Positions 44,720-44,930 of a stretch of 64,000 nt of DNA are shown here, piece by piece (position 1 is the stretch's first letter; each line of letters starts with the position of its first letter). A model generated the notes under the pieces. The model was given only the letters and a program-made list of their open reading frames with translations. It had not been told where the DNA came from and did no database searches. The stretch covers positions 109,642 to 173,641 of the forward strand of contig CAYOXC010000001.1 of the NCBI GenBank assembly GCA_964407865.1, given 5' to 3'. The position numbers and the translations under genes are program-made. This stretch comes from an uncultured Gammaproteobacteria bacterium (GTDB lineage: Bacteria > Patescibacteriota > Patescibacteriia > Magasanikbacterales > GWA2-37-8).

Positions 44720-44930
44720 TATGCCCTGTAATACAACTTCCAGTTTGTTTATAAAGGGCATGTAACTGGCTTGATATGGATGCATTGAATACTTGAATAG
44801 TTTTTGAGAAATTTAAGCAGACACAAAACATTAGTTATTTTATTGAAAAAATTTATAATAAAAATTAATTTACTTACGGAGAATAGACATAAAAGAGTGT
44901 TTGACTCTGGAAGTTCATAAACAGGGTATG
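44720..44930. repeat. Second ~211-bp unit bounded by inverted repeats, of the same family as 41716-41924. The right arm ends in the rpmJ start codon.
   Basis: Left arm TATGCCCTGTAATACAACTTCCAGTTTGTTT (44720-44750). Right arm GTTTGACTCTGGAAGTTCATAAACAGGGTATG (44899-44930). The interior holds a TATAAT box and GGAGAATAG. Confidence 0.6.

Follow-up and report, generated by a model that had tools for sequence, protein, structure and literature searches.

In the 64,000-nucleotide stretch analysed here (contig CAYOXC010000001.1; hereafter the window), the genes around rpmJ follow the order mnmA-alaS-gtrA-infA-rpmJ-rpsM...rpsI-flippase, a synteny that the window has in common with close relatives whose S13 is 80-85% identical. 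Directly 5' of rpmJ, at positions 44720-44930 of the plus strand, stands a unit closed by two inverted repeats. A first-pass annotation had described it as the second member of a family already seen in front of alaS, and had proposed that it carries the promoter and leader of the rpmJ-rpsM-rpsK-rpsD-rpoA-rplQ operon. As to its nature, the evidence presented below makes it highly probable that the unit is a non-autonomous copy, similar to a miniature inverted-repeat transposable element (MITE), of a Patescibacteria-wide family of small mobile elements, placed at the rpmJ start codon.

The element proper (CCCTG...CAGGG, 44724-44926) is 203 nt long and is flanked on each side by TATG. The ATG of the left copy (44720-44723, ATG at 44721-44723) marks the position at which rpmJ started before the insertion, and that of the right copy (44927-44930, ATG at 44928-44930) is the present rpmJ start codon; the two tetranucleotides form a direct repeat outside the inverted repeat and are the target-site duplication of the unit. 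The left terminal inverted repeat (CCCTGTAATACAACTTCCAG, 44724-44743) matches the family consensus CCCNGTAATACAACTTCCAG, which is unchanged in 96 of 117 distinct copies, and the right one (CTGGAAGTTCATAAACAGGG, 44907-44926) corresponds to the consensus CTGGAAGTTGATATACNGGG, the TGA of which terminates a nuclease open reading frame (ORF) in intact elements. Read together with TATG, the arms are TATGCCCTGTAATACAACTTCCAG (44720-44743) and CTGGAAGTTCATAAACAGGGTATG (44907-44930). A repeat search called them as a 23-nt inverted repeat, 74% complementary, with a spacing of 163 nt; within the 20-nt arms, 9+9 complementary positions lie on either side of a central mismatch block. The interior (44744-44906, 163 nt) is AT-rich, with 25% G+C, and has no coding capacity. 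The longest in-frame remnant in the element is a 14-codon upstream ORF (MPCNTTSSLFIKGM*, 44721-44765), the N-terminal stub (MPSNTTSS...) of the full-length GIY-YIG ORF described below, and the element contains neither a transposase nor any other long ORF. Only some 15-35 nt beside each arm resemble full-length elements. The sequence features reported by the first-pass annotation were found where it had placed them, namely the arms, the hairpin local to the left arm (ATGCCCTGTA at 44721-44730 and TAAAGGGCAT at 44752-44761, complementary at 9 of 10 positions), a TATAAT at 44854-44859 and GGAGAATAG at 44878-44886. In the alignment to a profile of full-length elements, GGAGAATAG fell, with low confidence, at the 3' end of the nuclease ORF.

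The alaS copy (41716-41924, plus strand) has the same build: TATG at 41716-41719 and 41921-41924, a left terminal inverted repeat at 41720-41739 and a right one at 41901-41920, with the alaS start codon (41922-41924) inside the right TATG and a remnant upstream ORF reading MPRYTTSSVF*. The two units share a 9-mer core (AACTTCCAG), which occurs four times in the window against 0.55 expected and reached four in none of 100 shuffles, and a 25-nt right-arm pattern that occurs three times against 0.00 expected; these counts exclude chance as the source of their likeness. A profile built from full-length relatives matches the rpmJ and alaS units at either end (E 2e-7 to 6e-5), and the family relationship claimed earlier holds. 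The same search added two further copies, making four in the 64 kb, each of the new ones ending at the ATG of an ORF. One is a remnant on the plus strand before the flippase-like gene (48718-48764), which has lost its left arm and lies between TATG at 48718-48721 and at 48761-48764, with GAGAATAG... at 48722-48740 and a sequence similar to the right terminal repeat, CTGGTAGTTGACATGCCGGG, at 48741-48760. This remnant has GGAGAATAG in common with the rpmJ copy. The other is a degenerate copy, likewise on the plus strand (7000-7146), before a membrane-protein ORF (ATG at 7144-7146); its arm-like sequences lie at 7000-7018 and 7123-7142 and its right end was detected by nhmmer at E 4.5e-4. By eye, several substitutions in one of its arms seem to be offset in the other (left AACTTTCAG against right CTTAAAGTT, and left TCCAT against right TTGGA).

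That the rpmJ unit is an insertion and not an ancestral control region follows from the existence of empty sites. The first-pass annotation had suggested comparing orthologous rpmJ upstream regions in related genomes, and the comparison went against its proposal: the unit is missing from the relatives L172, L173, L044, L046 and L048, all of which retain a conserved hairpin further upstream, followed by a single TATG and rpmJ. At the nucleotide level, L172 (S13 85% identical) reads GCTTAAAAAAATTTGGTTTA-TATG-AAAGTC where the window reads GCTTAAAAAATTTTGGACTATAT-TATG[203 nt]TATG-AAAGTT. The non-coding flank of L172 still nearly matches that of the window, which argues that the insertion is younger than the split from L172 and that the copy was already without a gene on arrival. 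Such an arrival fits an interior without significant similarity to other copies; indeed, the interiors of the rpmJ and alaS units show no significant similarity to each other or to any other copy. An empty alaS site is found in L051, where ATAT alone separates the mnmA stop from the alaS ATG, so that the gap between the two genes is 4 nt against 210 nt in the window (a 205-nt insertion). Upstream of the flippase gene, the relatives L049 and L051 are about 50 nt shorter than the window. In length, terminal inverted repeats, target duplication, empty sites and multiple copies, and in having counterparts with a gene between the same ends in other Patescibacteria, the rpmJ unit has what defines a MITE. 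In L042, which is the closest relative by S13 (89% identical), the contig breaks at the 3' end of rpmJ and the upstream region is missing, possibly a break induced by the repeat itself.

Direct repeats are found throughout the family. TATG flanks both ends in 96 of 146 copies, and among 108 independent copies the exact direct repeat is of 4 bp in 79, 3 bp in nine and 5 bp in two. Since TATG is in this lineage a generic context of gene starts, part of the identity of the flanks reflects the starts of the host genes, and the argument for duplication is carried by matched repeats of other sequence at independent loci: ATGA/ATGA (at four loci), TAAA/TAAA, TAAT/TAAT, TAAG/TAAG, CTTG/CTTG and CATG/CATG among the 4-bp flanks, and TAATG and TAGGA among those of 5 bp.

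We then looked at how widely the family is spread. In species-representative genomes the strict right-arm pattern matched 41 loci, about 35 of them in metagenome-assembled genomes (MAGs) of Patescibacteria (Saccharibacteria, Azambacteria, Portnoybacteria, Kerfeldbacteria and unclassified lineages), with up to seven copies in one MAG. The terminal ATG of the pattern opens the long ORF of an unrelated gene at each turn, for example rpsL, rplR, rpsF, rplS, lysS, ftsA, smc, gap or hpf, and nearly all of these right arms have a left arm (TATGCCCNGTAATACAACTTCCAG) 31-343 nt upstream. A metagenome scan in which the last four bases of the right arm were left free matched at least 120 contigs; among the matches listed, 69 of 80 right arms have an ATG opening a long ORF 0-1 nt after the GGG, several more have it 2-7 nt after the GGG, and 75 of the 80 have a left arm upstream. 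In all, at least 150 loci from a wide range of Patescibacteria lineages carry arms of almost unchanged sequence, and about 90% of right arms end 0-1 nt short of the ATG of a long ORF. Viral contigs gave no match to a 21-mer. The 117 distinct copies comprise 32 of full length, 26 of them with an open ORF, and 85 shorter derivatives. The latter fall into recurring length classes (e.g. 153, 151, 148 and 137 nt), pointing to amplified gene-less forms. Arm-like sequences within copies, in L002 (a 382-nt copy with GCCGAAGTTGTATTACTGGGCAAGG) and in L008 and L015 (copies of 152-157 nt), suggest nested insertions or rearranged compound copies. Canonical copies also lie on contigs of MAGs outside the Patescibacteria (L010, L037 and L040, Gammaproteobacteria; L017 and L035, Pseudomonadota; L014, Methylomirabilis), reflecting either mis-binning or horizontal transfer. 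One paper on gene transfer in Patescibacteria predicts transfer of a GIY-YIG protein to other bacteria and mentions GIY-YIG only as a transferred gene. Six matches to a degenerate pattern outside the Patescibacteria (L004, L007, L022, L031, L032 and L041) were taken as chance, their arms being divergent and most having no ORF after them.

The host targets have little in common beyond (T)ATG. Upstream of the left arms of 90 copies we found only a T at -1, which is the generic start context, and a weak A at -4 and -6; no Shine-Dalgarno or -10 motif at a fixed distance was found in these 90 copies. Among 98 host second codons, Pro (15) and Ala (14) are frequent and Lys is found only five times, with a weak extra preference for C at +4/+5. 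Candidate causes of the start-codon choice are a true preference for this target, the weak preference for C at +4/+5, and a bias of retention or ascertainment. Real targeting is suggested by tandem insertions (L140 and two left-arm flanks), where a second left arm starts at the TATG directly 3' of the right arm of another element, and by a mini subfamily of 75-84 nt (L135, L148, L169 and L144), which at several loci has TAAA or TAAG on its flanks in the place of TATG; this subfamily also hints that the four flanking bases may move together with the element.

These results bear directly on the possibility that the unit is a portable regulatory cassette that provides the rpmJ-rpsM-rpsK-rpsD-rpoA-rplQ operon, and alaS as well, with promoter and leader. 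The unit does lie directly 5' of the start codon, its interior is very AT-rich and holds a perfect TATAAT, and MITEs such as the Correia elements can create promoters. Yet the TATAAT at 44854-44859 has no -35 partner, and a plus-strand scan for sigma-70 sites (-35 and -10 hexamers spaced by 16-18 nt, at a frequency above chance) found no two-hexamer promoter within 44724-44926 or 41720-41920, the counts in these regions matching those of shuffled sequence; a terminator scan was run on the rpmJ and alaS units as well. Moreover, the closest relatives lack the unit and keep the same conserved upstream region, the distance of 4 nt between mnmA and alaS in relatives points to co-transcription of these genes, and interiors so dissimilar to each other and to those of other copies leave no conserved regulatory box. 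We thus consider the cassette unlikely. The promoter proposed by the first-pass annotation finds no support, with neither a two-hexamer site in the unit nor a unit in the relatives, and its idea of unusual control of the ribosomal operon is not supported either: relatives do without the unit, its interiors are not conserved, GGAGAATAG aligns, with low confidence, to the nuclease ORF, and the same unit stands before hundreds of unrelated genes. Its proposal of a leader survives in part: by position, the unit is now the last ~206 nt of the rpmJ 5' leader, but most likely not a leader dedicated to this gene.

Three further readings of the region upstream of the start codon were rejected. Neither GGAGAATAG nor the right arm is credible as the Shine-Dalgarno sequence of rpmJ. 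In the Magasanikbacteria-like lineage of L049, L050 and L051 such a sequence precedes only 4 of 50 gene starts (46 of 50 have none), and in the right arm GGAAG lies 16 nt and GGG 1 nt from the ATG. Inspected by eye as a promoter of leaderless mRNA, the right arm offers a TATACT that would put the start inside or after the ATG, and a GATATA without the key T at -7. In the same lineage a T at -1 precedes 41 of the 50 starts, and this pattern of gene starts can also be seen at genes of the window. A generic TATG context of this kind partly explains both the target of the element and the ability of its right end to serve as a leader.

The conserved feature of the rpmJ upstream region is a separate structure between infA and rpmJ, at 44612-44689. 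It is made up of an outer stem of 12 bp (ATCAATCATTGC/GCAATGATTGAT), internal strands that are conserved (GGTGTAG and CGTTGATATCGCG) and an inner hairpin whose sequence changes in relatives while its pairing is kept, followed by a U-run (ATTTTTTGC). In relatives it lies 28-56 nt before rpmJ. It has no Rfam match and is a candidate ribosomal-protein leader or attenuator of the rpmJ-rplQ operon.

A second alternative is that the paired arms form a cis-regulatory RNA (a ribosomal-protein leader, a riboswitch-like element or an RNase III stem) that evolved for the control of the host gene and is not mobile. In the predicted fold of the rpmJ unit, in both the minimum free energy and the centroid structure, the element is closed by its arms, whose pairing takes in the rpmJ AUG and so occludes it (z -2.9), and the alaS unit has the same predicted fold (z -2.6). 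The free position of the arms covaries through all four Watson-Crick pairs, CCCAG/CTGGG (76 copies), CCCCG/CGGGG (48), CCCGG/CCGGG (4) and CCCTG/CAGGG (2), with about 16 mismatched; the rpmJ copy is of the rare CCCTG/CAGGG type, found in 2 of 146. The changes in the 7000-7146 copy that appear compensatory by eye would agree with such an RNA. Against it stand the direct-repeat flanks and empty sites, the occurrence of one and the same element before hundreds of functionally unrelated genes, the existence of a protein-coding version and the lack of any asymmetry between G.U and A.C mismatches. Rfam gave no match at the gathering threshold in the whole window, and none even at E<=1 in 44560-44960. 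An RNA evolved for host control is thus improbable, and a secondary effect of the inserted element at the level of RNA may form part of the explanation as a mobile element.

Full-length copies are about 315 nt long and contain an ORF that runs from the ATG just outside the left arm to the TGA in the right arm (GTTGATATAC), which leaves 10 nt between its stop and the host ATG. Typically, the product reads MPSNTTSSMFFYYVYVLES..YIGYT..RLEEH..YFE..DAKRRE.YLKTTQGRRFLGLRL.EY..FGSGS*. These ORFs match the Pfam GIY-YIG domain (PF01541) with E values of 5e-15 to 3e-17 and are the only ORF of the element, with no DDE, HUH, serine or tyrosine transposase; the domain has been lost from the window copy. 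The proteins, of 100-103 aa, amount to the catalytic core and have no separate DNA-binding domain, and their best matches by sequence in the PDB are the small UPF0213 proteins 1zg2 (E 1e-7) and 1ywl (E 2e-3). A protein search returned 698 clusters, whose annotation goes no further than 'GIY-YIG nuclease family protein', 'excinuclease ABC subunit C' or 'putative endonuclease'. Among the best 120 of the 698, nearly all begin with MP(S/R)NTTSS, 68 of them starting exactly with MPSNTTSS and nearly all others being one residue off, and end with FG(S/T/A)GS, which means that the arms are part of the annotated proteins. Identity by codon position in 25 intact ORFs is 0.74/0.84/0.53, indicating purifying selection on the nuclease protein. 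In the codons of the arms, by contrast with this pattern, third positions are 0.96-0.98 identical, so that the arms are constrained as nucleotides. A second comparison of identity agrees, with 0.94-0.98 in the arms and 0.70 in the interior, the value of the right arm, unlike that of the left, being inflated by the search pattern. Both ends of the element carry a CNNNG pentamer (CCCNG/CNGGG), which is known as the cleavage motif of the I-TevI nuclease domain and serves here as a lead only.

The GIY-YIG domain, together with a weak resemblance, below threshold, to TIGR01453, a model of group I intron endonucleases, would be expected of a free-standing homing cassette, spreading only by homing between alleles of one locus and without transposition. 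Within single MAGs, however, the copies occupy many different host genes, they are bounded by terminal inverted repeats and flanked by direct repeats, derivatives that lack the gene recur at several loci with deletions in common, and a protein of ~100 aa without a DNA-recognition domain faces no single long cognate target, all of which makes the homing cassette very unlikely. An invertible promoter switch, in which a recombinase flips a promoter segment between inverted repeats, is hardly credible: in its size (an interior of 163 nt) and its internal TATAAT the unit is reminiscent of known invertons, but the ~117 copies are all in one orientation (behind reversed left-type arms stands CATA instead of a start codon), each copy shows fixed differences between its left and right arms, the unit lies between direct repeats of 4 bp, and the encoded protein is a nuclease, with no recombinase in the element.

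How could a mobile element settle at the start codons of essential genes? Duplication of the target would put one ATG at the left end, to be used as start codon of the element ORF, which would thus take over the translation-initiation context of the host gene, and a second ATG at the right end that leaves the host ORF intact. Ribosomes that terminate within the right arm, only 10 nt away from the host ATG, could then reinitiate on the host gene, coupling the two in translation, and such reinitiation would explain why insertions before essential genes are tolerated. The GIY-YIG protein would be the nuclease that mobilises the element. In the window, rpmJ would be expressed by read-through from upstream, and translation of the 14-codon stub may open the left arm and free the rpmJ start from arm pairing. 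It is quite possible, though we stop short of calling it probable, that the family represents an undescribed class of transposable elements whose sole protein is a ~100-aa GIY-YIG nuclease, which integrate at start codons with (T)ATG duplication, take over translation and hand it back, and are thereby nearly harmless. The rpmJ unit itself is most likely a tolerated selfish remnant, and not a dedicated regulator.

Several observations weigh against a mobile element with this mode of action. The length of the direct repeat varies (3, 4 or 5 bp), which is looser than in classical DDE transposition, and 14-18 of the 108 independent copies have no exact repeat, mostly with CATG on the left versus TATG on the right. 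TATG being also the generic start context of the lineage (T at -1, as above), flanks of this sequence are less telling than they look. Our search patterns required near-intact right arms, and the start-codon bias could in part be an effect of retention or ascertainment. In-frame upstream ORFs in the short copies exceed expectation (44 of 85, 28 being expected), in copies that are not independent of one another. G.U-type and A.C-type mismatches between the arms are equally frequent (12 vs ~13) and therefore give no sign of pairing in RNA rather than of co-evolving DNA ends. No autonomous copy was seen in the 64-kb window. Finally, the mobilising role is ascribed to a nuclease lacking a DNA-binding domain, and we know of no transposase of the GIY-YIG fold.

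Among known systems, the closest analogues are the Correia elements of Neisseria (CREE/NEMIS), which are likewise of 100-200 bp, gene-less and multi-copy, with terminal inverted repeats of ~20-26 nt and a short target duplication, and which often lie just 5' of genes, are co-transcribed with them and have arms able to form a long RNA hairpin; for these elements RNase III processing and promoter creation are documented. There is no sequence relationship between the two, the target is TA there and TATG at start codons here, and for the present family a coding form is known, with GIY-YIG as its sole ORF and arms that double as the N- and C-termini of the protein. The UPF0213/COG2827 proteins (B. 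halodurans BH0048, 1zg2; E. faecalis EF2693, 1ywl; E. coli YhbQ) have the same core of ~70 residues and belong to the same size class. They are generally regarded as cellular single-copy genes whose function is unknown, whereas the Patescibacteria proteins have arm-encoded tails (MPSNTTSS- and -FGSGS) and are encoded in multiple copies between inverted repeats at the starts of host genes. GIY-YIG homing endonucleases (I-TevI, T4 Seg/Mob) share the catalytic fold and selfish mobility, but the present family has no DNA-binding domain or intron context, has many targets, and carries terminal inverted repeats and direct repeats. Classical insertion sequence families encode a DDE, HUH, serine or tyrosine enzyme, of which the full-length copies here are devoid. 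Insertions with GIY-YIG ORFs have been reported in rRNA genes of the candidate phyla radiation (CPR), unlike group I or II introns and seemingly not spread by homing (J Bacteriol 2024, PMC11270868). The available part of that report concerns rRNA genes and makes no mention of inverted-repeat arms, direct repeats or insertion at start codons; compared by description, they may belong to the same family as ours. A literature search on GIY-YIG with Patescibacteria or Saccharibacteria, terminal inverted repeats and target-site duplications, start codons and CPR MITEs found no description of the element, the rRNA-gene paper being the only one to mention insertions with GIY-YIG in CPR bacteria, and the family is apparently undescribed.

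Some further observations concern the neighbourhood of the copies. The alanyl-tRNA synthetase encoded by alaS is short in the window (41895-43772) and in its relatives, at about 616-626 aa. L049 and L050 carry a small CBU_0592-like ORF between mnmA and alaS, which is absent from the window and from L051. A look-up of the exact L36 sequence of the window returned no record. Between rpsI and the flippase gene (48640-48764) there come, in this order, a clean terminator hairpin (ACACCCTGAGATACGGGGTGTTTTT), a good sigma-70-like promoter (TTGAAT, 17 nt, TATTAT) and the element remnant that has lost its 5' part.

For the rpmJ operon, the outcome removes a false lead: the operon is not under a dedicated inverted-repeat cassette, and what is truly conserved upstream of it is the hairpin at 44612-44689. 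At the same time it exposes a large selfish family, with arms near-invariant across distant lineages, a position exactly at the starts of essential genes and a minimal GIY-YIG nuclease as sole gene. The family accounts for many of the spurious small ORFs and long 5' leaders annotated in CPR genomes, and may cause breaks in assemblies. If the nuclease mobilises the element, it would be a new catalytic class for prokaryotic transposition, and if the translational hand-over holds, it would show a parasite concealed within an expression unit in a manner that is new. Should both be true, gene-less derivatives like the rpmJ copy would put essential genes of Patescibacteria behind a hairpin and a mini upstream ORF.

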